This document shows positions 1 through 43,488 of a stretch of 47,734 nt of DNA, in pieces. The number at the start of each line of letters is the position of its first letter. Position 1 is the stretch's first letter. Below the pieces are notes generated by a model. That model saw nothing but the letters and a program-made list of their open reading frames with translations. It searched no databases and was not told the DNA's origin. This stretch comes from a virus. Lineage: Duplodnaviria; Caudoviricetes. A program made the position numbers and the translations under genes. The stretch is from positions 1 through 47,734 of the IMG/VR virus record IMGVR_UViG_3300014208_001203; one strand, written 5' to 3'.

Positions 1-90
1 ATGTTGATACATTTCAAACTCTTCCTTTGTTCCATTATGCAACTTCGATTCTGCCATCGCTGCCGAAAATTTTTGTCCTGTATGTGTCAT
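1..90 (-). CDS. Hypothetical protein, N-terminal part (runs off window)
   Basis: ATG at 90, open to the window edge (MTHTGQKFSAAMAESKLH...); not in the ORF track. Confidence 0.5.
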   Translation of the reverse strand, partial: MTHTGQKFSAAMAESKLHNGTKEEFEMYQH

Positions 91-132
91 ATAATTTAAC
101 TACATTTATTTGTGACCGTTATAAACAATAAA

Positions 133-309
133 TTAAAATTGTTTACATTTTAGTCTTTTGCTAAGTTTCTTCGCCCATCGAGCAAAAGATTTTGCTTTTT
201 CTTCATCAATATTTTCTGGCTCTACCATATGTCCAGCAGTTGCTTTATTTGCTGCGTCAAACAATTTGTCAGCAAAATCTTTCACGTCTTTATCTGTAAA
301 GTTTTCCAT
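133..309 (-). CDS. Hypothetical cassette protein, 58 aa
   Basis: Hand translation MENFTDKDVKDFADKLFDAANK...KCKQF*; fills one cassette; promoter motif upstream at 374-400. Confidence 0.7.
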   Translation of the reverse strand: MENFTDKDVKDFADKLFDAANKATAGHMVEPENIDEEKAKSFARWAKKLSKRLKCKQF

Positions 310-326
310 AATTTTAATTTACATTT

Positions 327-448
327 TTATAACAACAAATATAAAACATTGCTGTCGTGGTTTCTATTTATATTATACGTTATTTTCTAAGTTTTGTTTC
401 ATTAATTTACTTCTGTGTTGCAACGTTTTATATTTGCAACCGTTATAT
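327..448. repeat. attC-like hairpin site 1
   Basis: TAAC-aa-CAAATATAAAACATTGC ... GCAACGTTTTATATTTG-caacc-GTTA (16/17 paired). Confidence 0.85.
374..400 (-). promoter_or_regulatory. AAC-N16-CGTA promoter motif inside the loop of site 1
   Basis: Minus strand GAAAC-N16-CGTATA, same as 13 other copies. Confidence 0.7.
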
Positions 449-533
449 GCAATGCTACGTTTCTGCTTCGTATTAAGTTTCATCGTAACATTCTTTTTAT
501 TTTATTTTTTCTCCCACCTCACAAATATAGTAA

Positions 534-1379
534 TTATATTTTGAATATTTTATTTATTTTAATATTATCATCATCAAATACAATAATTTCATCAGTAATA
601 CCATAACCAGTGTCAGCATCAACAATTATTACAGTATCAAATCCTTCATTATTTGCAGTTTCTAACCAGCCAACTCTATTCCAATTAGTTCCTATATTTT
701 CACCTTTTTCTGTTGTTGTATTACCAAGTTTTATATCACATTCGTAAATGTATGCAATTCCGTTATTATCTTTTAAAACAGAAGCATAATAATTAGCATA
801 TTTTAATTCTCTAAAAAAGAAAAAACCATTATCAGCACCAAGTTGTCCACTTGATTTATTTTCTCCATATCTAAATTGTTTAAATTTAAAAGAACTTGCA
901 TGATAACCTTTCATTGTTTTTTCATTTTTATTGAAATTTGGTTTTATATTATTTTTATTATCTTTATATAATTTTCTCGCTTCATCTTGAAGTTCTTTAG
1001 TATTATCCATTATAAATGTCCAATGATTACTACCATAATCTTTATCCGCAATTATCGTTTTATAATGTGCAAATGATGTAGTTCTATTTTTATAAACGGT
1101 ATTGTTATTATTATCTTTAACAATTCTACCAATAACAATTTCATCACCTTTATTTATTCTACCATAATCTTTAATTAAATTAATATCGTTTAAATAAACA
1201 TATTCTTCAACAAAATCATTTTCTTTCCATTTTCTTGCATTATCAATAAATGGTTGTAATTTAGATTTATCAAATTTATAGTTGTAATCAAAATCATTAT
1301 CTGAATTTTCCACTTGTTCATTCAAATATTCACGTATAGTAGTTGCTATAAATTTGCGTAGTTTCATATCTTTCTCCAT
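534..1379 (-). CDS. ADP-ribosyltransferase-fold-like (ART-PolyVal-like) protein with LRKFI..TIREYL leader
   Basis: YHAS..F..F, GFFFF...YA..Y, EGFDTVII, EIIVFD motifs resemble 12806..13375. Confidence 0.6.
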   Translation of the reverse strand: MEKDMKLRKFIATTIREYLNEQVENSDNDFDYNYKFDKSKLQPFIDNARKWKENDFVEEYVYLNDINLIKDYGRINKGDEIVIGRIVKDNNNNTVYKNRTTSFAHYKTIIADKDYGSNHWTFIMDNTKELQDEARKLYKDNKNNIKPNFNKNEKTMKGYHASSFKFKQFRYGENKSSGQLGADNGFFFFRELKYANYYASVLKDNNGIAYIYECDIKLGNTTTEKGENIGTNWNRVGWLETANNEGFDTVIIVDADTGYGITDEIIVFDDDNIKINKIFKI

Positions 1380-1487
1380 ATATTTTACTTTATATATAAA
1401 TATTCAAATTTTAAATTTCTTCCCACAAAAAATAAAACAAAAAGTTTCATCTCTCATATCAAAGTTTGTAGTATAAATCCGCACTGC

Positions 1488-1581
1488 ATATAACAAGGTG
1501 TATAAGAAAGTTTGCTATCAACGATAGTGGTAATTTGAAAGTTTATACAAGCAAACCTTCTCATACACCCAATCGTTAGGT
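1488..1581. repeat. attC-like hairpin site 2
   Basis: TAAC-aa-GGTGTATAAGAAAGTTTGCT ... AGCAAACCTTCTCATACACC-caatc-GTTA (18/20). Confidence 0.85.
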
Positions 1582-1591
1582 GCAATATTTT

Positions 1592-2371
1592 TTAATTTTT
1601 TTGCCACCCCACTTCGGTTTTTTCAAAACCGTTTGGAAAAAACTCGTTCATTGTTTTGCCACTTAACCACCATTGCATTGCAATCTCTCCGTTTCCATTC
1701 GTGGCACAAGTTAATTTCCATTGTGGATTTTTGCTCATTCCTTTTGTAATTGCTCGTTTAATCGCTTCATAATATTTTGGATAAAGTTCAAATTCTTTTT
1801 CTCTTGCACCTTTTCGGCTCACTAATGGGCAGCCAACGCAACCAAGTCTATTTGCTCCAGTTCCGTAATGTGGTGCAAGTTTTATTTGTTTTTCGGCAAT
1901 AAATGAATAAACATCTTTATCAGTCCAATCGTAAATTGGATAAACGTGTTGGCTTCCTTTTTGCCATTTTCTATTATCGCATTGCACGTAATCTCTATTT
2001 TGTCGGTTCTTGCTTTCAGAACTACGAACACCTTCAAACATAATTTTACCAACCGAAACGTATTCTTTCAAAAATTCACAGCAATAGCGATTTAATCTTG
2101 TTGGTAATCCTTTGCGTTCAACTAATTGATAAAATGTTTCTTTTGGTTGCATTATTACTGTGTGTGGGTAATTATCTCTAATGTGCTTTATTGTTCCAAT
2201 CGGGTCGATAGTTGTATTTGCATAAATTGAAGTATATTCGATGCCTGATTTTTGCAATAAATAATCAACTACGGCACTATCTTTACCTCCAGAATTACCT
2301 GCAAATAATGGTTTGTCGGTAGCGTTTGCAACCGTATGTATAAATTTTATTGCTTTTTCTTCTAAATTCAT
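1592..2371 (-). CDS. PAPS reductase-family (PP-loop) protein
   Basis: SGGKDS PP-loop, RYCC, GVRSSES, PIYDWT, RLGCVGCP; start moved to MNLEEKA at 2371. Confidence 0.85.
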   Translation of the reverse strand: MNLEEKAIKFIHTVANATDKPLFAGNSGGKDSAVVDYLLQKSGIEYTSIYANTTIDPIGTIKHIRDNYPHTVIMQPKETFYQLVERKGLPTRLNRYCCEFLKEYVSVGKIMFEGVRSSESKNRQNRDYVQCDNRKWQKGSQHVYPIYDWTDKDVYSFIAEKQIKLAPHYGTGANRLGCVGCPLVSRKGAREKEFELYPKYYEAIKRAITKGMSKNPQWKLTCATNGNGEIAMQWWLSGKTMNEFFPNGFEKTEVGWQKN

Positions 2372-2408
2372 TTTTATTTCCCTCCCTAAAAAATTAAAAA
2401 ATACAGAC

Positions 2409-2462
2409 ACCTAACAGCGTGTATGTTGCATTAAAACGACAACATACACGCAACCGTTAGCA
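2409..2462. repeat. attC-like hairpin site 3 (minimal)
   Basis: TAAC-a-GCGTGTATGTTG-cattaaaacga-CAACATACACGC-aacc-GTTA, perfect 12-bp arm. Confidence 0.9.
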
Positions 2463-2466
2463 AACA

Positions 2467-2682
2467 TTATTCAGTAACATTTAGAATAACTATATAATTG
2501 TCAATTGGTTTATCTGTGTTAAAATGATACCATTTATCATTCTTTCTCTCAACAGGTATTTCCCAATGTTCTATATTATTTAATCCTTTAACTAAATATC
2601 CTTTTAACATATAACGTTTGCTAACACCAGCTATATTTAATTGCTGGTTATCTGTGCTATTTAAGTTTTGTTCTTTGTTCAT
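2467..2682 (-). CDS. Hypothetical cassette protein starting inside hairpin site 4
   Basis: 71-aa ORF; QLNIAGVSKR is encoded by the arm and core of site 4. Confidence 0.7.
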   Translation of the reverse strand: MNKEQNLNSTDNQQLNIAGVSKRYMLKGYLVKGLNNIEHWEIPVERKNDKWYHFNTDKPIDNYIVILNVTE

Positions 2683-2749
2683 AATACATCTTAATTTGAT
2701 AGCTTAGTGTTTCAAAATCAGCAACTAAACATAGCTGTAAACGTTATGG
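2619..2749. repeat. attC-like hairpin site 4
   Basis: TAAC-ac-CAGCTATATTTAATTGCTGGTT ... AATCAGCAACTAAACATAGCTG-taaac-GTTA (19/22). Confidence 0.85.
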
Positions 2750-2968
2750 TCAATTGTAAAAAACCGCCTCCGTAGTCTTTACCCTTTGACCTTGAATTAA
2801 GGCATTTAATCCTATTTCATCAAATGTGGTATTCTCTGCAAATCCACTCGTGTCCATTTCTCCACTATCACACCAAATTGTAACTATCACACTTTTCGGT
2901 ATTGGATTTGTTTTAATAGGCAAAAATTTGTCTATATGTTCATTAATTTGTTCTGCTGTCCATTCCAT
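2750..2968 (-). CDS. Hypothetical cassette protein
   Basis: 72-aa ORF whose stop abuts the GTTA core. Confidence 0.65.
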   Translation of the reverse strand: MEWTAEQINEHIDKFLPIKTNPIPKSVIVTIWCDSGEMDTSGFAENTTFDEIGLNALIQGQRVKTTEAVFYN

Positions 2969-3030
2969 CGCTCAAAATATTTAATTATTACATTTTACCT
3001 CGTATCAATATTTGTGCGTAATTATCGCAC

Positions 3031-3076
3031 TGGTCATATACCTGTCCGTTATAGCACATTAAAACGATGCTATAAC
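3031..3076. repeat. Orphan right half-site followed by an empty cassette
   Basis: tgtcc-GTTATAGCA-cattaaaacga-TGCTATAAC; no matching left arm found upstream. Confidence 0.75.
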
Positions 3077-3318
3077 AGCAAATATATTTAATTTTAAAAA
3101 TTTGGAACTGTCACTACAATTGGATATTTCTTCGGTTTATTGGCTGAAAAAAATTTACTTTCAGTCATATATTTACCAATCCATTGTTTAGTTCTATCTT
3201 CAACAATTTCATTAAATGCTCTATATTTTAGAACATCAAGTAAATTTTCTTCTGTTATTTTAATTGCCCATTTCATAATAAAATTTTTAAAACTATAATA
3301 TATTTGCAACCGTTAGCA
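3070..3318. repeat. attC-like hairpin site 6 with a gene in its loop
   Basis: GCAAATATATTTAATTTTAAAAATTT (3078-3103) pairs with 3281-3307, then aacc-GTTA. Confidence 0.8.
3094..3276 (-). CDS. Hypothetical protein, 60 aa, between the arms of site 6
   Basis: MKWAIKITEENLLDV...; ATG at 3276. Confidence 0.6.
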   Translation of the reverse strand: MKWAIKITEENLLDVLKYRAFNEIVEDRTKQWIGKYMTESKFFSANKPKKYPIVVTVPNF

Positions 3319-3322
3319 TCAA

Positions 3323-3502
3323 TTACCACATAAAACTATTACATTTTTCACAGTACCGTTGTTTGCCAAATATACTTTTTTTACTATGTTCTTCTTGTGT
3401 GCAATGTGGTAACTGTTCGCTTCGCACACTAACATCAGATAACAACAATTTTTCAGTGCTATTATCAATGTTTTTTGTTAATTTTTTACTTTTGTTTTTC
3501 AT
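3323..3502 (-). CDS. Hypothetical 59-aa protein with CxxC, starting inside hairpin site 7
   Basis: Hand translation MKNKSKKLTKNIDNSTEKLLLSDVSVRSEQL...YCEKCNSFMW*. Confidence 0.6.
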   Translation of the reverse strand: MKNKSKKLTKNIDNSTEKLLLSDVSVRSEQLPHCTQEEHSKKSIFGKQRYCEKCNSFMW

Positions 3503-3544
3503 ATTAAAATTCGTTTAAACTGCTGTTATCTGTGACCGTTATAC
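3427..3544. repeat. attC-like hairpin site 7
   Basis: TAAC-at-CAGATAACAACAATTT ... AAACTGCTGTTATCTG-tgacc-GTTA (14/16). Confidence 0.8.
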
Positions 3545-3561
3545 ACAATTGCTTTTTATAT

Positions 3562-3588
3562 TATACGTAAATAATTAGATTTTGTTAC
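3562..3588 (-). promoter_or_regulatory. AAC-N16-CGTA promoter occupying an ORF-less cassette body
   Basis: GTAAC-N16-CGTATA between cores 3538 and 3605. Confidence 0.7.
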
Positions 3589-3598
3589 GAGCAAATGT

Positions 3599-4502
3599 GC
3601 ATAACAGCAAATATAACCAATGCTGTCAGTGCTTCGTAGCAAGATTTGCACAAGTTTTACCATAATTTTTATTTTTTTGCCCACGCACTTCAGTTTTTTC
3701 AAAACTGTTAAAGTTTACAATAAATGCGTCCAAAAGCTCAATGGAGAACCATGATAAAAAGTAGTTTCACATTCATTATTATATTTACCATTAATGGTTT
3801 TTGTTATTTCACCATCTTTGTATATTTCTACTTTAACAATATTTTCTACTGGAATATTTTTTAAACATATTTCACTATATCCACCATATTGTTCTTGTAT
3901 ACTTGACCATTCTAAGGGAGATAGTAGTGATAAATCGTCTTTTTTTATATATGTAAGCAACACATCCACTTCTTTTAAATTTGGCTCTTCACTAAAACCA
4001 CATCCGTTTAAAAACTCCTTAGTTAAATTTGTTAGTTCATGTTCTGAGTAATCTTCTTCATTCCACTCCCTTTTATATTGTTTCAAATCATCAATTATTT
4101 CATCTTTATATCCAGAAATCCAAATATCACCACCAAAATGTTTATTTACATTATCCAAACAAACATAAAACAAAACACCATTTTTTATTGGATGTCTGTA
4201 TGCATGTGCCGCTGATGTTTGCCCATTTGCATATGCACTTGCATATGATTTTGATATGGATAAATATACCAAATTTAAACCAAACCCAGTACTTCTTGAT
4301 ATATTTGGCTTAATTTTTAATTTGCCAAATTCTTCTCTAATTAATTTACGTATAAAATCTTCTTGTTTTGTAATCATAATATCCAGTTTTTTATATATAA
4401 ATATTAAAAAATTAAAAATCCACCCTAAAAAATAAAAATTATTAGTGTAGTGTTTCAATCAAACATTTGTGGTAGCACTGGTTATATTTACAACCGTTAT
4501 GT
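3599..4502. repeat. attC-like site 8 with an ~850-bp gene-containing loop
   Basis: GCAAATATAACCAATGCT (3607-3624) pairs with AGCACTGGTTATATTTAC (4474-4491), 16/18. Confidence 0.75.
3715..4377 (-). CDS. Hypothetical protein with FIRKLIREEF leader, possibly ART-like
   Basis: Start moved to MITKQ at 4377; VYLS...YA..YA and C-terminal FYHGSP. Confidence 0.65.
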   Translation of the reverse strand: MITKQEDFIRKLIREEFGKLKIKPNISRSTGFGLNLVYLSISKSYASAYANGQTSAAHAYRHPIKNGVLFYVCLDNVNKHFGGDIWISGYKDEIIDDLKQYKREWNEEDYSEHELTNLTKEFLNGCGFSEEPNLKEVDVLLTYIKKDDLSLLSPLEWSSIQEQYGGYSEICLKNIPVENIVKVEIYKDGEITKTINGKYNNECETTFYHGSPLSFWTHLL

Positions 4503-4506
4503 GGCA

Positions 4507-4704
4507 TTAAGCACCACGCAACTTTTCGCCTCTCATGTCATCACAATTTTTTCTACCCCACTCAAGCACTTCCTCGTATGCTTTTTTCATATTTGGTTTT
4601 GCTTCATCATACACTTCTGCATTTTGATAACATCTACTACTTAACCCACAGAATATACGATAAAGTCCTTCTGCTGTTTCCTTGTCAAATTTTAATTCTT
4701 CCAT
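4507..4704 (-). CDS. Hypothetical cassette protein, 65 aa
   Basis: MEELKFDKE...; fills the cassette between cores 4496 and 4724. Confidence 0.65.
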   Translation of the reverse strand: MEELKFDKETAEGLYRIFCGLSSRCYQNAEVYDEAKPNMKKAYEEVLEWGRKNCDDMRGEKLRGA

Positions 4705-4717
4705 AATAATTAACGCC

Positions 4718-4839
4718 ACATAACAACGTGTATAAAACATTGCCTTTCGTGGTCTTTTTTAAGTTTATACTAATTTTATAATTTTGTTCATTTTATTAAG
4801 TTCTGTGTTGGCAACGTTTCATACACGCAACCGTTATAC
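4718..4839. repeat. attC-like hairpin site 9 (last in array)
   Basis: TAAC-aa-CGTGTATAAAACATTGCC ... GGCAACGTTTCATACACG-caacc-GTTA (16/18); loop resembles site 1. Confidence 0.85.
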
Positions 4840-5882
4840 ACAACATCCTTCTTTTTTTAAAATTTTAATGTTTTTATAAATTACTGATTCGCTCAAACCA
4901 GTTATTTTAATCAACTCCTTTACAGAAATACCTTTTTTATAATAAAGCTTGCAAATGTTTAAATTTTTTTTACAATTTTCTTTTTGGGATAATTTTTCAA
5001 ATGATATATTATTCCACTTTCTTTTTAAAATAGGAAGTTTTAAATTAATAGCCAAATTTTTAATATATTTTGTAATTTCTATATCAGTTACATGACAAGA
5101 CACTAAATTTCCATCATAATACGGAGTATAAATCTTATTAAATTTATCAGTAAAAGGACTTAACATTTTTATTATGTTTTCCTCCCAATTCTTGTGTACT
5201 TTAATTGTAATATAACCCCTTTTATTTATAGAACCATCTCCATCAATAAACCCTATTGCAATTGGAACTAATTCATCTTTTGTTAGTTTGTTAAAATCAC
5301 AAGGAACATAAGTTTTGTTGTGATTTATTTTAAATTTTTTATATAAAAAATCCCATATTTCTCTAATTCCAACATACAAACTTGGTTTAGTCAAGTGTAA
5401 TTTATAAATTTTGCTAATTTTTTTAAATGTTTAAAATCTTTTATTGCTAAATTAATTTGTAGTTGTTTGCTTTTTTCATTAAAATGACCATCTGCTAAAC
5501 AAAATCCAATCCAATATAAACTTTCATTTGAACCGTTTATTAATTTGAATGGATTGGAAAAAGATTCTGATTCACGTTTTAACTTAAAACAAAATGCTTT
5601 TTGTTGAATTGCACTCCAAGATCTTCCTAATTTTTTTACAAAATCATCAACATTACCTTTTTTATAATTCTCTTTCAAATATTTTATCTCCTGAGTTTTC
5701 CATATTTTTTGTTCCCCATTTTTATGATTTACTTTAATTCTTTTTATTCCAAGTTTTGATGCTCTGCTCTGAATTCCAATCCACGTTCTTTGCAAGTGAC
5801 TTATTAAATCTTTTTTATTTAAAGATTCGTAATTTTCAAACAAAAAATCATCTTCTTCTTTTTTCCAAATTGTTTTTTCCAT
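4834..5882 (-). pseudogene. LAGLIDADG endonuclease split into two ORFs (5391-5882 and 4834-5394)
   Basis: YWIGFCLADG in the first ORF and IGFIDGDG in the second; both motifs are in one ORF in paralog 11867..12646. Confidence 0.65.
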
Positions 5883-9590: not shown

Positions 9591-10661
9591 ATGGAGAAAA
9601 TCAGGAAAATAATAAAAGAAGAATTACATGCTATCTTAGAAATAGAAAAAATAACAAACGAATTGGCTCCTTATTGTATGAAAAGAATTAGTTCTGAGAA
9701 AAATTATGCAATTCAATATAAACAAAAAACAGCAGGAACTTCTTTTACTGTACAAGAATTAAATTTATCTCATAGTGCATTTGTTAATTTTTTGATTATT
9801 AATGTTGAATTTAAAAAGGAAGCCGACAATAAAGAAATAAACAAAGTTGGCGGAAGTTACATAGAAGAAAGTATTGACCAAGAAATTGTAAATGGAATTA
9901 TAAAATATAACGGAGAAATTAAATTAAAACTGTATAATTGGGATTACAACACCGATTTAACCCATCAAATAAAAAATGTTCTTGACCATGAGTTACATCA
10001 TTTTTTTGATGATATAATAACATTTAACAAGAAAAAAACTACAAAATTTTTAAATTCAGTCAATCGTATGACAATTGATATTTCCCAAAAGTTATTAGAA
10101 AAATATCCAGAATTAAAAGATTTTACAGAGATATTTTATTTAAATCTCTCAAAAGAAAGAAATGCAAGAATTCAAGCAGTAAATTTTGAGGCCAAAAAAT
10201 ACAAAGATCAGACATTGGATGTTATCATTGAAAAACTCGGTAAATTTGCACCATTTAAAGATTTCCAAAGAATGGATAAATTTGATGTAAATAAATTAAA
10301 TTACATTCCGATTGAAGATAGAAAAAAGTTTATAGAATTATTTAACATTTCTTTGAATTATAACAGAAAAAAATTTAATATATCAGCAGAAGAAATAAAC
10401 TATCCAAAAGAACCAGACAAGTTTTTTGGTTTTTGGAAAGAGCAATTTAAAAAAAATTCACAAAAATTGTTTAAAGACTCAATTTCTATTGCAAAAAAAA
10501 TGGCAAACTCTCCAATTAAAGAAAATTGGAATTATAAGTTTGATGATGATTTGAGTCTTAAGTCTATGGAAATTTTGTTTAATTATCATTACAGAAGCAC
10601 AAAAATGGAAATAAACAAGTCAAATGATGATAGAATAAAATATTATACTAAAGTTCTTTAA
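9591..10661 (+). CDS. HExxH putative zinc metallopeptidase, paralog 1
   Basis: HELHH plus downstream ERNAR; close to 14652..15707. Confidence 0.65.
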   Translation: MEKIRKIIKEELHAILEIEKITNELAPYCMKRISSEKNYAIQYKQKTAGTSFTVQELNLSHSAFVNFLIINVEFKKEADNKEINKVGGSYIEESIDQEIVNGIIKYNGEIKLKLYNWDYNTDLTHQIKNVLDHELHHFFDDIITFNKKKTTKFLNSVNRMTIDISQKLLEKYPELKDFTEIFYLNLSKERNARIQAVNFEAKKYKDQTLDVIIEKLGKFAPFKDFQRMDKFDVNKLNYIPIEDRKKFIELFNISLNYNRKKFNISAEEINYPKEPDKFFGFWKEQFKKNSQKLFKDSISIAKKMANSPIKENWNYKFDDDLSLKSMEILFNYHYRSTKMEINKSNDDRIKYYTKVL

Positions 10662-12805: not shown

Positions 12806-13375
12806 TTAAACTTTTTCACTTTTTATAATTTTTGTTTGATTATCATTAAAAACAACAATTTCTTCACCAGTGCCATATTCAATTATTATTGCATCATATC
12901 CTTCATTTTCTAAACACTTAGATATTTTAATAGCTCCAAACTTGTCAGATATAGAAAAAAAATCTATCATTCTTGTTTCTTCATTTTTCACATCTGAATA
13001 CCCAAAGTCTGCTCCTCCTTTAGTTAGGATATCAATGTATTTTTGTACTTCTGGGTTAATTAAATTCCTGTCAATTTTCCCGTTTTCTTGGTTCATTTTA
13101 TATTCTGAATATTTTTCATAATCTATTTTATACGGGTTTTTAACATCTAATTCTACAGTTAATATATATCCATCAGAACCGTTAGCATAAGTTTCTGCAA
13201 CTTTTTTATCTGTTGAGAAATATAAACCTCTACCAAAATCTCCAGCATTGTTTTGAGACCCAGATTTTTCTAATTTAAACTTATCGAATTTATGCGGAGT
13301 TCCATGATAAGCAATAATCTTCTTTTTGACACCAGCCAACTCTTGTAATCTGTTTTTGTAATTTTCAGTTATCAT
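12806..13375 (-). CDS. ADP-ribosyltransferase-fold (ART-PolyVal-like) protein
   Basis: YHGT..KFDKF, FGRGLYFST...A..YA, KNPY, GYDAII, EIVVF. Confidence 0.7.
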   Translation of the reverse strand: MITENYKNRLQELAGVKKKIIAYHGTPHKFDKFKLEKSGSQNNAGDFGRGLYFSTDKKVAETYANGSDGYILTVELDVKNPYKIDYEKYSEYKMNQENGKIDRNLINPEVQKYIDILTKGGADFGYSDVKNEETRMIDFFSISDKFGAIKISKCLENEGYDAIIIEYGTGEEIVVFNDNQTKIIKSEKV

Positions 13376-13404: not shown

Positions 13405-14514
13405 TTATATTACAAATTTAGAGTATTTTTTTATTTCATTTAGAAACTCATCTTCCATTTCTCCGTGATAATAATGTGTGTCTGGTCCATTATCATAAAT
13501 CATCACTGCGCATTTTATATTATAATAAATCTCGTCTAATAATTGTTCCATATAGCTTCTATATTTAGGATTGCCATATTCGGTCACAACTTCTTTGTCT
13601 GCAAATAAGTTTATAGCTTGAGAAACAATTTTATGCCTTGCTTCTAGACTCATTCTCTTTGCTCTACCAATCCAATAATTAAAGAAATCATCTGGATTAT
13701 CAATTATTTTTATAGAATTTACATTTCCTTCTTTTGAAAATTTTAAAAGATATTTGTTAAAATCATTAACAAAATCTTCTTTTATAAATTCATCCAAATT
13801 TAAAACCCAATGGGGTTTAAACTTTTGTACTTTTAAAAAATCTCTGAAAACAGATAACTTATTCAACTCTCTTAAAACTTCATCATGTGTCTTTGCATGA
13901 AAATTTAATTTAAGATTTTTGATTTGAACATATGCTTCATGCACTCTTGCATCCACTTCTTCAGGTAAACTTAAATAGAAAATATCCATAAACCTTTCAA
14001 ATTCATCTATTCCATCAAAAAATTCTAAATTTTTCATTTTATTTCTGGTATTGTATAAAGCTTTTGAATAATTATTTGAATCAATTGTTGTTATATGTTG
14101 AAATGAGTGAAATAATTCATGTGAAAAAACCTTTTTTATATCATTTTTTAAGTCTGTTTTATAATCCCAATTAATTATGTAAATTTCAAATTTTACAAAA
14201 TACCTAAATTCATTTCTAATAAAATCTTGTCTTAATTTTATTAACCTCCCTGAAACACGGTTTATTTTATTACTTTTTTCTTCATCTGGAATTATATCTA
14301 TTCTAATTTCCCATATTTTAGATATTTTTCTATCTTCATCAGACATTTTTTCATCTATACGCAAATTGTCTTCACTTCCTAATTTTTCTTTTTTTTGTTG
14401 AAATTTGTTTGTTAATATTTCCATTATTCTTCTCGAATACTTATCTGAAATATTATCCAGCGGAAGATAATGACCCAAAACTTCTCTAACTAATTTTCTG
14501 AATTTATTTTGCAT
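13405..14514 (-). CDS. HExxH putative zinc metallopeptidase, paralog 2
   Basis: NWDYKTDL..VFSHELFH, IFYLSLPEEVDAR. Confidence 0.65.
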   Translation of the reverse strand: MQNKFRKLVREVLGHYLPLDNISDKYSRRIMEILTNKFQQKKEKLGSEDNLRIDEKMSDEDRKISKIWEIRIDIIPDEEKSNKINRVSGRLIKLRQDFIRNEFRYFVKFEIYIINWDYKTDLKNDIKKVFSHELFHSFQHITTIDSNNYSKALYNTRNKMKNLEFFDGIDEFERFMDIFYLSLPEEVDARVHEAYVQIKNLKLNFHAKTHDEVLRELNKLSVFRDFLKVQKFKPHWVLNLDEFIKEDFVNDFNKYLLKFSKEGNVNSIKIIDNPDDFFNYWIGRAKRMSLEARHKIVSQAINLFADKEVVTEYGNPKYRSYMEQLLDEIYYNIKCAVMIYDNGPDTHYYHGEMEDEFLNEIKKYSKFVI

Positions 14515-14651
14515 GTGTGCTTTTAATGATAAATATTTTTAAATTATAATGACAATAATATACAAAAATTTTTCTCTAATGTCAATATCCTAAACAATAT
14601 TATTTAAATTATATTTTGTTTTTGTTATATTTATATAAACATCATTGGAAT

Positions 14652-15707
14652 ATGAATAAAATTAGAAAAATAATTCAAGAAAAAGTGCATGTTGTTCTTG
14701 AAATTAAAGAAATCGTAAAAAAACTTGCTCCATATTATATGAAAGAATTTTATAAAATGGTGCCCAATATAATTGAATATAAACAAAAAACATATTGGAC
14801 TACAATTCCTGTTTCTGAATTATATCTATCCAACAATGCTTTTGTAAATGAGCTAATGATTACAATATATTTCCACAAAGAATCAACTGAAAATGTCGAA
14901 AACATTGTTAGTGGTCAATTTTCTGAAGAAAGCATAGATCAAGAAATTGTTGATGGAATTGTTAAGTATAACGGTGCAATAAATTTAAGAATACACAATT
15001 GGGATTATAAAACAAACTTAGAAGAACATTTAAAAAGTGTGTTCTCTCATGAATTACATCATTTTTTTGATGATATTGTGACATTTAACAAAAAGAAAAC
15101 AACAAAAATTTTAAACTCTGTCAATAGAATGACATCAAATTTCTCTTTAGAATTATTAAATAAATATCCAACACTAAAAGATTTCACAGAAATATTCTAT
15201 TTAAATCTTCCAAAAGAAAGAAACGCAAGACTTACTCAGCTGTCTGTAGAGGCAGATAAATACAAAGGGAAACCAATAGATTTTGTAATAGAACAGCTTG
15301 GACACTTAACTGCATTTAAAGATTTCCAAAGAATGGATAAATTTGATGCTAATAACCTAAAAAACATTCCATATAATGACAGAAAGCAATTCATTGATTC
15401 TTTTAATCTATCTTTAAACTATTCTAAAAACACCATGAATATTTCCTCAGAAGATCAAAATTACCCCAAAGAACCAGATAAATTCTTTGAATTTTGGCAA
15501 AGACAATTTAACAAAAATGCAAAAGTGTTATTTAAAAAATCCATTAACATAGCAAAATTTTTAAGCAAAGAAAAAATTAATGAGAACCACATTAATTTAT
15601 TAGAAACAAAATTAAATTCTACTTCATTAGAAATACTTTTCAATTATGGTTTGGATAATATAGGCATAGAAAAGAATACACACTCTGACCGAATTAAATT
15701 TAAATAA
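14652..15707 (+). CDS. HExxH putative zinc metallopeptidase, paralog 3
   Basis: HELHHFFDDI, IFYLNLPKERNAR; start moved to MNKIRK. Confidence 0.65.
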   Translation: MNKIRKIIQEKVHVVLEIKEIVKKLAPYYMKEFYKMVPNIIEYKQKTYWTTIPVSELYLSNNAFVNELMITIYFHKESTENVENIVSGQFSEESIDQEIVDGIVKYNGAINLRIHNWDYKTNLEEHLKSVFSHELHHFFDDIVTFNKKKTTKILNSVNRMTSNFSLELLNKYPTLKDFTEIFYLNLPKERNARLTQLSVEADKYKGKPIDFVIEQLGHLTAFKDFQRMDKFDANNLKNIPYNDRKQFIDSFNLSLNYSKNTMNISSEDQNYPKEPDKFFEFWQRQFNKNAKVLFKKSINIAKFLSKEKINENHINLLETKLNSTSLEILFNYGLDNIGIEKNTHSDRIKFK

Positions 15708-41022: not shown

Positions 41023-41343
41023 TCAAGTAAATTCATAGACATCATTGTCGTTTATAATTTTTGTTGTAAATGGAAAATCGTCTTCTGGAACTTTTTTTAT
41101 AGTTTCCATTAGTAATTTAGCAATGGAAAAAGCAACATATTTCTTATCATCAACACTAATTTGTAACCACAAACAATTATCACTTCCTTTTTCAGGATAT
41201 TTAGAAGGTTTAATGTGATAGGCATGAATTGTTATTTCAGTGTTTAAAATCTTTGCAAGTCTTATTTTTTCTCCTACAAATTTTGTAGATGTTGATTTTA
41301 TTCCTAAATCTGAAAATTTTTTAATTATTTTTTGTTGTTGCAT
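41023..41343 (-). CDS. DGR-associated hypothetical protein (candidate accessory factor)
   Basis: 106 aa, overlaps the RT stop; predicted beta-rich, unlike helical Avd. Confidence 0.65.
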   Translation of the reverse strand: MQQQKIIKKFSDLGIKSTSTKFVGEKIRLAKILNTEITIHAYHIKPSKYPEKGSDNCLWLQISVDDKKYVAFSIAKLLMETIKKVPEDDFPFTTKIINDNDVYEFT

Positions 41344-42289
41344 TTAATAGTTTATTAGTTAAATTTATACAATCTCCGTGCTTTAACCATCCAATATATG
41401 ATGCTACAGAAGTTTTGTTTTGTTTGTTTTTTAACATATATACAAAATTTTTTTTTATTCTTTTTCTAATTTTTACATGAGTGTGAAAAAATACATATCC
41501 TAAAAAATCAACACCTCTCGATTGTACTGGGTATATTTGATAATTTTTCTTAAGGCGTAATTTTAAATTATCAAATAAATATTTTTTTATATCTAACAAT
41601 AGTAAATGAAGAAATTTCTTATTACCAGAAAAAAACACCATATCATCAGCATATCTAAAATAATATTTAACATTTTTTACTTCTTTAATCCAATGATCAA
41701 AATAACTCAAATAAAAATTTGAAAAATATTGAGATAAATAATTTCCTATTGGCAAACCAATAGCACTATCAATAATTTCATCAAGTAAAAGCAACAACTC
41801 TTTATCTTTAAATTTTCGTCTTAAAAGAATTTTTAGAGTTTTGTTATCTATGTTTGGATAAAATTTCTCGATATCAATTTTAAGACAATAAACAGTTTCA
41901 CTTTCATCTCGTAAAGACTCTTTTATTTTTTTAACTGCTGAATGAATTCCTCTTCCTTTTATAGAACTATATGTATCAGCAGTAAACGTAGATATAAATA
42001 TTGGTTTTAACACATTCATAACAGCATGATGTAATATCCTGTCAGGAAAATATGGTAATCTATAAACTATTCTTTCTTTTGGTTCAAAAATTTTAAATGT
42101 TATATAATTTGATGTTTTATATGTTTTACCTTTTAATTGACAATGTAAAATTCTTATGTTTTCCAATCTATTCTCATCATGTTTTTTAACACATGGTTGT
42201 TTTAACTTTCCTTTGCGTGCATTTTTGTCTGCTAATTCTAAATTTTCAACACTTATTATTTTTTGGTACAAATTGCCAATCCTTTTCAT
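41321..42289 (-). CDS. DGR reverse transcriptase
   Basis: MKRIGNLY, FEPKER, PDRILHHA, GLPIGNYLSQ (DGR-type SQ), RYADD, VDFLGY. Confidence 0.95.
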   Translation of the reverse strand: MKRIGNLYQKIISVENLELADKNARKGKLKQPCVKKHDENRLENIRILHCQLKGKTYKTSNYITFKIFEPKERIVYRLPYFPDRILHHAVMNVLKPIFISTFTADTYSSIKGRGIHSAVKKIKESLRDESETVYCLKIDIEKFYPNIDNKTLKILLRRKFKDKELLLLLDEIIDSAIGLPIGNYLSQYFSNFYLSYFDHWIKEVKNVKYYFRYADDMVFFSGNKKFLHLLLLDIKKYLFDNLKLRLKKNYQIYPVQSRGVDFLGYVFFHTHVKIRKRIKKNFVYMLKNKQNKTSVASYIGWLKHGDCINLTNKLLNATTKNN

Positions 42290-42400
42290 TATATGCCTTT
42301 GCTTAAAAAGTCATCTTCTTATTAAATACCAATGCCTTTTATTTAAAATTTATTTTTTACCATCTTGGTAAGGTTCATGCTGATTAAAGATTTTAATTTT

Positions 42401-42491
42401 GCATAGATGAGAAGTGGAAGTCGCATTCGCATTCGAATTATTGTAATTCGTATTGTTGAAAACGAAACCCGAACCCGCAGAGAACACCACC
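42401..42491 (-). repeat. DGR template repeat (TR)
   Basis: Non-coding, AAY-rich (would read VVFSAGSGFVFNNTNYNNSNANATSTSHLC); 20 adenines. Confidence 0.95.
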
Positions 42492-42513
42492 GCTTTTCAG
42501 CATACAACCAATT

Positions 42514-43002
42514 TTATTTTAGATCAATCAATTCATTTTCTATATCAATAAATTTTTCGCAAGCATCTTTGGCAAACTCTGCATTTTTAAAGCAAAGGCG
42601 AGAAGCGGAAGCCGCAAGCGCAATCGAAGAATTGTAACGCGCATTGACGAAAACGAAACCCGAACCCGCAGAGAACACCACCACTGGATAATAACGATTT
42701 TCTCCAATTTTTGGCAACCAACCTTCATTATAAACTTTTGCAATTCTCATTTTTTTAATAAAAGCTTTTATAACTTTTATTTCCTCTTTTCCAAATCCTG
42801 GAACTTTAACGACCAGAGAGTCGTCATCACAATCTACTCCAAGAGCATCACAGATATCTTCATAATTTTGTATTTTATCTGTTATCTTTTTTGGAACAAA
42901 AAACTCTTTTCCGAAATTTTCTTCAAGCATTTCTTTAAATTCTTGTGCAGCTGTCGGATATAACCTCAACGCCGCTTCTTCGCTCATTTTTAATGTTTTC
43001 AT
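42514..43002 (-). CDS. DGR target protein 1
   Basis: Contains VR1, ending ...ASRLCF. Confidence 0.9.
   Translation of the reverse strand: MKTLKMSEEAALRLYPTAAQEFKEMLEENFGKEFFVPKKITDKIQNYEDICDALGVDCDDDSLVVKVPGFGKEEIKVIKAFIKKMRIAKVYNEGWLPKIGENRYYPVVVFSAGSGFVFVNARYNSSIALAASASRLCFKNAEFAKDACEKFIDIENELIDLK
42592..42682 (-). repeat. Variable repeat VR1
   Basis: 91-nt ungapped match to TR; 14 of 15 mismatches at TR adenines. Confidence 0.95.
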
Positions 43003-43032
43003 TTTTTTATTGTTGATTTAAAAATTAATTTG

Positions 43033-43488
43033 TTACATAATAAAGTCTTTATATTCTTGTAAAAAATAAGTTGCAGCGTGTTTTGCCAACTCCTCAGTTT
43101 TAAAGCAAAGGCGAGAAGCGGAAGCCGCACCCGCAAACGAATTATTGTAACCCGCATTGACGAAAACGAAACCCGAACCCGCAGAGATATAAAACCATGC
43201 AAAGTAACGATATTCATCTGGATTCATATTAAAAACATAATCTTCATTTAAAACTTTCGTAATAAATTTTAATTTTTTATAAGCCTTTTCGTCCACAGTA
43301 TCTTTTTTATTAAAAATACTGTTTGATTTAACCTTCTTTAGTTCACAGGCATCTTTAAAAGACTTAACCATATCCATAATTGATTTTGGTTTGTTTTTTA
43401 ATTCTAACGCTTCAATTTTTTTGCGTATTTTATCTACATTTTCTACTGCGAATTTTAATTCTTTTTGTAATTTTAATTTTGTTTCCAT
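43033..43488 (-). CDS. DGR target protein 2
   Basis: Paralog of target 1, contains VR2. Confidence 0.9.
   Translation of the reverse strand: METKLKLQKELKFAVENVDKIRKKIEALELKNKPKSIMDMVKSFKDACELKKVKSNSIFNKKDTVDEKAYKKLKFITKVLNEDYVFNMNPDEYRYFAWFYISAGSGFVFVNAGYNNSFAGAASASRLCFKTEELAKHAATYFLQEYKDFIM
43105..43187 (-). repeat. Variable repeat VR2
   Basis: 83-nt match to TR; 13 of 14 mismatches at TR adenines. Confidence 0.95.

Follow-up and report, generated by a model that had tools for sequence, protein, structure and literature searches.

A reused, covarying repeat shell around the large cassettes of an integron-like array in a Caudoviricetes virus

The window analysed here is the whole virus record IMGVR_UViG_3300014208_001203 (Duplodnaviria; Caudoviricetes), 47,734 nucleotides (47.7 kb) of AT-rich DNA corresponding to a virus genome that is 13% complete. 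Its positions 1-4850 hold an array of integron-like cassettes in which three large genes are each enclosed by an inverted A/T repeat (units 1 to 3). Comparison with related loci reveals these repeats to be the inner arms of a shell which is reused and covaries, as each arm fits its own partner although arm sequences vary from one shell family to another. The arrangement is a variant of integron-like cassettes, not a transposon. We consider it probable (roughly 0.6) that the shell folds the two ends of a cassette into a rod, that a recombinase moves the whole cassette and that cargo as well as paired layers are exchanged inside the shell; the folding is predicted, and movement and exchange are what we infer. 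Since the same kind of shell is present with unrelated phage genes and with defence operons of Bacteroidota, it is likely a reusable package rather than a separate jumping element.

Inner repeats and the cassette array

A preliminary description of this DNA had claimed that each of the three large genes is bracketed by an A/T repeat of its own (17/18, 16/16 and 16/16 matching positions), that C-rich cores lie just inside these repeats and that two units carry a mini-hairpin, all of which is indeed present at the positions given below. A window-wide search reveals the three units to be the only ones, all of them within the 4.85-kb array and none in the remaining 42.9 kb. Not a single one of 1000 dinucleotide shuffles of the array, the control suggested at that time, produced a unit with cores and, if the cores are not required, none of 300 dinucleotide shuffles gave three units (mean 0.01).

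For the comparison, 66 distinct cassette bodies were parsed from the fetched loci, 60 of which are from phages after one duplicate had been dropped (L174, a duplicate of L049); host rows were left out of the phage counts. The variant repeat of L132 was left out of the arm-family test, and L134, a copy of the window, represents unit 1 in the unit-1-shell rows, in the body parsing and in the arm-family test. An inner repeat of at least 16 matches is found in none of the 33 bodies shorter than 600 nt and in 17 of the 27 larger ones. Half of the framed bodies (8/16) come from three arm families which had never been used as queries. Across five arm families, an arm shows on average 17.6 matches to its own partner vs 9.2 to arms of other families, and none of 180 cross-family pairs reaches at least 16 matches. 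The inner edge of the repeat is separated from GTT by 63-70 nt and from TAAC by 64-68 nt in 15 of the 16 framed bodies. When 21 sites were selected by left core and hairpin only, 14 turned out to possess a partner arm of at least 12 matches; of the other seven, three are cut by contig ends and four are without partner arm. The stem of the mini-hairpin occurs in four compensating variants among the relatives, and unit 3 shares its outer stem with L019, the inner arm being different yet self-matching. The notion that A/T runs simply pair by chance in AT-rich sequence, for which the low complexity of the arms and seven core-less pairs of equal quality in 288 kb of the related record G002 could be put forward, is refuted by the shuffles, the cross-family comparison and the constant positions, and we regard its probability as negligible.

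The features of the array are as follows, with the strand where one applies.

330-445: attC-like site left of unit 1, TAAC...GTTA, stem score 16/16
442-455, plus: outer arm of unit 1, R'-like GTTA plus extension, pairs with 1481-1494
493-510, plus: left inner A/T arm of unit 1, 17/18 with 1427-1444
511-522, plus: left C-rich core of unit 1, G-rich on the bottom strand
534-1379, minus: cargo gene of unit 1, 281 aa, common N-terminal leader plus domain
1393-1403, minus: promoter-like motif within the unit 1 shell, occurring upstream of non-cassette genes too
1417-1426, plus: right C-rich core of unit 1
1427-1444, plus: right inner A/T arm of unit 1
1481-1494, plus: outer arm of unit 1, R''-like TAAC end, pairs with 442-455
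1491-1578: attC-like site, 80-nt class
1575-1582, plus: outer arm of unit 2, pairs with 2408-2415; short shell, no spacer
1586-1601, plus: left inner arm of unit 2, 16/16 with 2388-2403
1592-2371, minus: cargo of unit 2, PAPS-reductase-domain protein, 259 aa (PF01507, 1.3e-18)
1603-1612, plus: left C-rich core of unit 2
1615-1631: mini-hairpin of unit 2, loop GAA on the bottom strand, stem covarying in relatives
2380-2387, plus: right C-rich core of unit 2, 8 nt ahead of the start codon
2388-2403, plus: right inner arm of unit 2
2412-2459: attC-like site, 40-nt class
3048-3076: gene-less cassette body, GTTA...TAAC hairpin, loop as in the 40-nt attC
3073-3315: attC-like site holding a small open reading frame, without inner A/T repeat
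3538-3605: gene-less cassette body, partner of unit 3, present in L016 too
3602-4499: 898-bp attC-like site with unit 3 inside, outer arms 3602-3625 and 4473-4499
3662-3677, plus: left inner arm of unit 3, 16/16 with 4427-4442
3679-3688, plus: left C-rich core of unit 3
3691-3707: mini-hairpin of unit 3, loop GAA on the bottom strand
3715-4377, minus: cargo of unit 3, 220 aa, no family match
4394-4404, minus: promoter-like motif within the unit 3 shell
4418-4426, plus: right C-rich core of unit 3
4427-4442, plus: right inner arm of unit 3

The units differ from each other in their setting: units 1 and 2 sit between attC-like sites, in cassette bodies of the form GTTA...TAAC, and unit 3 sits within a single attC-like site adjoining a gene-less body. 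Altogether, positions 1-4850 contain eight attC-like sites with the full stem score of 16/16; outside arrays, the scan which identified them is not strict enough, and a later one took its place for the parsing of bodies. The sizeable open reading frames (ORFs) of the array are all on the minus strand, and the short attC-like sites of related loci fall into classes of about 40, 80 and 105-120 nt. The promoter-like motif is presumably a late promoter. Degenerate direct repeats of 18-19 nt are seen by eye in the loops of attC-like sites (window 330-4836 and related loci), and the small minus-strand ORFs 2467-2682, 3323-3502 and 4507-4740 start within or beside such sites. An identical 10-nt loop closes the minimal attC (2412-2459) and the gene-less body (3048-3076), suggesting that each of the two cassette arms can occur with or without a load.

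Strand bias, predicted folding and the recombinase

The cores contain 56% and 48% C compared to 17% in the window, and the repeats had been found without using them. They are C-rich on the attC top strand even where the arm polarity is reversed or where host cargo lies on the other strand. Cores as duplicated targets were considered and rejected: a target duplication is seen in 1 of 52 units vs 1.2% of cross pairs by chance. Likewise, the left and right core within a unit resemble each other no more than do cores taken from different units (3.92 vs 3.94, p 0.58). Passages of Nivina 2016 (PMC5027507) describe attC bottom strands as G-rich, with more G:T pairs and often a GAA loop; such a loop is present in the mini-hairpin of the shells. 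The C-rich cores and the GAA-loop hairpin thus appear to be unpaired, strand-skewed features of the attC type rather than target sites.

In single-stranded DNA, the shell is predicted to bring the two cassette ends together as a single rod whose end loop is the gene. This rod would consist of an R-box stem, a loop of about 35-40 nt, an A/T stem of 16-20 bp, a G-rich loop and a side hairpin, and it should be stabler on the attC bottom strand. The bottom-strand cofold is the lower one in 15 of 16 framed bodies, and the R-box extensions (n=55) contain 43 bottom-strand G:T pairs vs none on the top strand. Hence, a folding bias towards the bottom strand is seen in the R-box extensions and in the cofolds, and not in the inner arms. 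Full-length folds of units 1 to 3 assign the inner stem a probability of 0.95-0.97 on the bottom strand.

A tyrosine recombinase is encoded directly before the first cassette in two of five related records (G002 and G004), and in both this first cassette is framed; its position suggests that an attI-like site is present at the head of these two arrays. Compared to the integron-integrase model TIGR02249 the enzyme reaches 157 bits at a cut-off of 265, in a split match, and it possesses 30 residues where IntI4 has 78, while it can be aligned continuously with archaeal XerA; an integrase of IntI type with the specific insertion is therefore not what these records encode. The sites themselves are those of an integron, with TAAC/GTT ends and paired arms (eight sites in the window, 16/16). 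Since the recombinase remains below the integron-integrase cut-off, the system seems to work like an integron yet falls outside IntI. The enzyme, related to XerA and IntI, likely moves the whole cassette, the exchange taking place between G and TT of the GTT triplet.

Several observations weigh against the proposed reading. The sample is enriched for shells, since the loci were collected using shell motifs, and 10 of the 27 large bodies lack an inner repeat. No recombinase is present in the window, the record being 13% complete, or in the complete related record G001. The gene of unit 2 occurs also in plain cassettes (L008-L010) and outside cassettes. The inner stem is predicted from top-strand folds as well (0.86-0.96), and the mismatches of the inner arms are not biased towards the bottom strand (5 bottom-strand G:T, 12 top-strand, 14 other), about 7 of the 12 top-strand ones belonging to a single family. 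Upon inversion of the left arm in silico, the outer stem retains probabilities of 0.88, 0.73 and 0.77 in units 1, 2 and 3, compared to 0.97, 0.98 and 0.76 in the native sequences. As the outer stem is thus largely kept, a clamp role is unsupported; an inner stem acting as clamp at equilibrium was dropped as a candidate, the stem not being required for equilibrium folding in silico. In addition, for IntI1, Loot 2017 (PMC5371416) reports, in the part relevant here, no consistent drop of excision below 1.5 kb.

The likeness to integron cassettes, as far as passages of Nivina 2016 (PMC5027507) describe them, comprises folded TAAC...GTTA sites, R-box complementarity of the two cassette ends, G:T pairs on the bottom strand, G-rich unpaired parts and GAA loops, to which the tyrosine recombinase at the array head of relatives has to be added. 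In contrast to integron cassettes, the cassette ends pair far past the R box via nested stems, and the phage genes point in the direction opposite to that of the attC top strand. Genes also reside within an attC loop, the site measuring 898 bp vs 57-141 bp for the attC sites given in those passages. In the segment of the IntI insertion, the recombinase of the relatives lacks about 48 residues compared to IntI4. Phage-borne clusters of attC sites lacking integron-integrases (CALINs) are reported in Qi 2023 (PMC9892861), including a Polaribacter phage with methyltransferase cargo; in the passages considered, neither a self-pairing shell nor a gene within an attC nor an exchange of cargo in a conserved frame is described. 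MITEs (miniature inverted-repeat transposable elements) are defined in an excerpt of PMC11602168 by inverted repeats of 10-15 bp or more and the lack of an own enzyme, which they and MITE-flanked carriers share with the units; unlike these, the units show no target duplication, no conserved terminal sequence and no empty sites and are confined to the cassette context.

Cargo exchange, mobility and alternative explanations

The 52 phage units carry 34 cargo groups, the leader having been removed before grouping. A Pfam search with 38 cargo proteins identified six adenine methyltransferases, four ART-PolyVal proteins, one GNAT protein and a few others, 23 remaining unmatched; PAPS reductases are among the shell cargo, too. 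The leader-less domain of unit 1 has no match in Pfam, NCBIfam or PHROG; a weak similarity (54 aa, E 1e-5) connects the C-terminus of the protein with the ART-PolyVal gene at positions 12806-13375. The cargo junctions coincide with the inner edge of the shell: on the left they lie just inside the core or hairpin, on the right at the start codon or at a common leader. Unit 3 and L016 have the shell and the first 17-20 codons in common, not the domain, and on the left they diverge just past the hairpin. In homologues, the unit-3 domain occurs with several leaders, that of unit 1 among them; a search of the viral collection with this domain found no relative beyond the leader. The final residues of the unit 2 protein are encoded by hairpin, core and arm. 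Unrelated enzymes read into hairpin and core in one frame, suggesting that they were joined without a stop codon of their own. New genes would likely enter by exchange inside the shell at these two junctions. The GTT of the mini-hairpin was dropped as a fixed crossover, because the junctions are found a few bases beyond it and because its sequence changes along with the stem.

Unrelated enzymes terminate in a common tail peptide encoded by the shell, always in one frame (window 1592-1640, L014, L162, L164, L165 and L166). Many unrelated proteins encoded behind the promoter-like motif start with similar short leaders ending in Glu-rich motifs, in the window those of 534-1379, 3715-4377, 9591-10661 and 13405-15707, and many more in related loci. 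The leader is also a swap point of cassette cargo domains; we assume that such leaders may be capsid-targeting, like those of T4 internal proteins. The framed phage cassette of L036 (17829-18257) has a weak match to an Arr ADP-ribosyltransferase (PF12120, 1.9e-8).

The shell of unit 1 is found in 40 distinct rows with differing left flanks, which places its cassettes in different neighbourhoods; 25 of these rows show the right end (shortest span 514 nt), and three are too short to judge. Among the 37 informative copies none is empty, a result which refers to this sample and is no proof of absence; an allele lacking exactly the bracketed segment, which the preliminary description had suggested looking for, thus did not come to light. 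Scans for empty alleles with short loops gave 3 and then 23 matches, none in cassette context. Units were found only beside R-box-like ends: 47 of 52 lie in R-box context by script and four of the remaining five by eye, L007 being ambiguous. Three records spanning 765 kb contain only two units with T arms, each of which lies in an array. In L003 an arm and its cargo lie between attCs, and the same combination is located within an attC in L004, similarity dropping within a few bases outside the arms, and a second arm family is likewise present in two outer frames (L162 vs L166). The occurrence of the same repeat unit in both settings implies that layers reassort. An exchange across the folded rod would replace both ends at once, which is why paired layers would be acquired, exchanged or lost as pairs.

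These transfers between outer frames, with breakpoints close to the arms, are also what one would expect of a nested mobile module which, equipped with recombination sites of its own, would be transferred in trans between cassette bodies and the loops of attC sites and would account for the conversion of genes and operons into cassettes. The gene-precise joins of ORF and shell and the entry of unrelated enzymes into the hairpin in one frame fit such a module, as do host shells (see below) with side hairpins as direct repeats at both ends and cargo in either orientation, and a hybrid hairpin between two host defence modules (L203). We nevertheless regard it as unlikely. Terminal inverted repeats of MITE-like length (10-15 bp or more) are present, but a conserved terminal sequence of the transposase type is missing, there being five mutually non-matching arm families. 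The lack of empty alleles and of dispersed copies, the near-exclusive R-box context, a target duplication in 1 of 52 units and cores without special likeness within a unit all argue in the same direction, and no transposase was seen in the ORF lists beside six host recombinase loci. Of the second layer, mobile or structural, postulated in the preliminary description, the structural part therefore stands, as it exists, covaries and is reused with unrelated cargo, while its independent mobility does not: it has neither an empty allele nor a target duplication, and its arms are not conserved between families.

In promoterless cargo, the right core reads as a G-rich stretch which precedes the start codon by 5-10 nt. 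This could be cited in favour of the nested module and also of a further explanation, according to which cores and arms are expression signals, the right one acting as a ribosome-binding site and the left one as a stem that stabilises or terminates an RNA. Since each of the 52 phage cargo genes is encoded on the stabler-folding strand, an RNA fold would be possible. On the other hand, a promoter-like motif inside the right arm in 39 of 52 units means that the arm would not be transcribed with the gene, a Shine-Dalgarno-like motif precedes only 2 of 50 long ORFs of the window, and the cores of host shells remain C-rich on the attC top strand regardless of the orientation of the cargo. Furthermore, on the gene strand the hairpin is not followed by a U-run, and a search of Rfam gave 0 matches. 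Expression signals are unlikely and the less probable of these two alternatives, and the cassette shell which folds into a rod and exchanges its cargo remains our preferred reading.

Shells in Bacteroidota chromosomes and their meaning

A related multi-layer shell encloses defence operons of 3-12 kb in chromosomes of Bacteroidota. While the core-plus-hairpin pattern of the phages has 0 matches in the species-genome collection, a shorter core pattern has 14, seven of them in Bacteroidota, of which five follow an attC-like end and two do not. For nine host sites the best partner arm (11-19 matches) lies 3.3-12.4 kb downstream. The cargo comprises several genes, e.g. an OLD nuclease with a UvrD helicase, or a type I restriction-modification system. 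Co-folding of five host shells predicts nested long-range stems and side hairpins, the cores separating successive stems. Among 19 host side-hairpin pairs, seven have a repeat of at least 14 matches and six match best with their own partner; others have fewer layers. Single-gene host cassettes in L197 have no shell repeat. Homologues of the recombinase (39-47% identity) are present in 5 of 5 host genomes, one of them 4.3 kb upstream of a framed cassette. Judging from the chromosomal shell matches, the host of the virus is probably a member of the Bacteroidota.

The side hairpins of the host shells measure about 50 nt, have conserved ends and covarying stems, and flank multi-gene cargo in direct orientation (L196-L205, L239-L252); in L203 a hybrid side hairpin lies between two defence modules. 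The host side hairpin may be a second recombination site. A phylum-wide search for side hairpins was noisy, the control pattern often matching as well, so that its 173 of 301 is not taken as a count. We take the strand-specific hairpins in direct orientation near both ends to be a likeness to the ends of IS200/IS605 elements, from which the shells differ in that no HUH transposase is seen and that phage units have a one-sided side hairpin; a fixed cleavage tetramer was not noticed either, no search being aimed at it.

A full-text literature search, most subscription papers being outside its reach, found no description of such shells, which apparently are undescribed in print. The first making of integron cassettes is, in the wording of a section of Loot 2017 (PMC5371416), largely unknown; a constant frame combined with dozens of unrelated genes and with junctions that can be mapped renders the question of cassette origin testable. 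One may tentatively go further and envisage the shell as the cassette-making device of a Bacteroidota integron-like system, with a folded rod open to any kind of DNA, be it a single phage gene or a defence operon of 12 kb, through exchange at the inner boundary, although we think this rather doubtful. If it were true, hosts would package defence genes and jumbo phages counter-defence genes with the same machinery, and a first route of de novo cassette formation would become visible. The same architecture holds defence operons in Bacteroidota and methyltransferases and ADP-ribosyltransferases in their phages, which points to a gene-swapping format shared by both sides. Genes in attC loops and cassettes of several kilobases exceed the attC sizes quoted above, and standard integron annotation would probably fail to detect them.

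Outside the array, genes of the window include a DNA ligase, homing-type genes and a phage SmpB (5944-6387), a tRNA or tmRNA gene being absent from the window. Positions 41321-43488 contain a locus resembling a diversity-generating retroelement, with a reverse transcriptase (PHROG 1423) and two target genes; a template-like repeat lies in 42290-42513, and template adenines account for 14 of its 15 mismatches to one of the targets.

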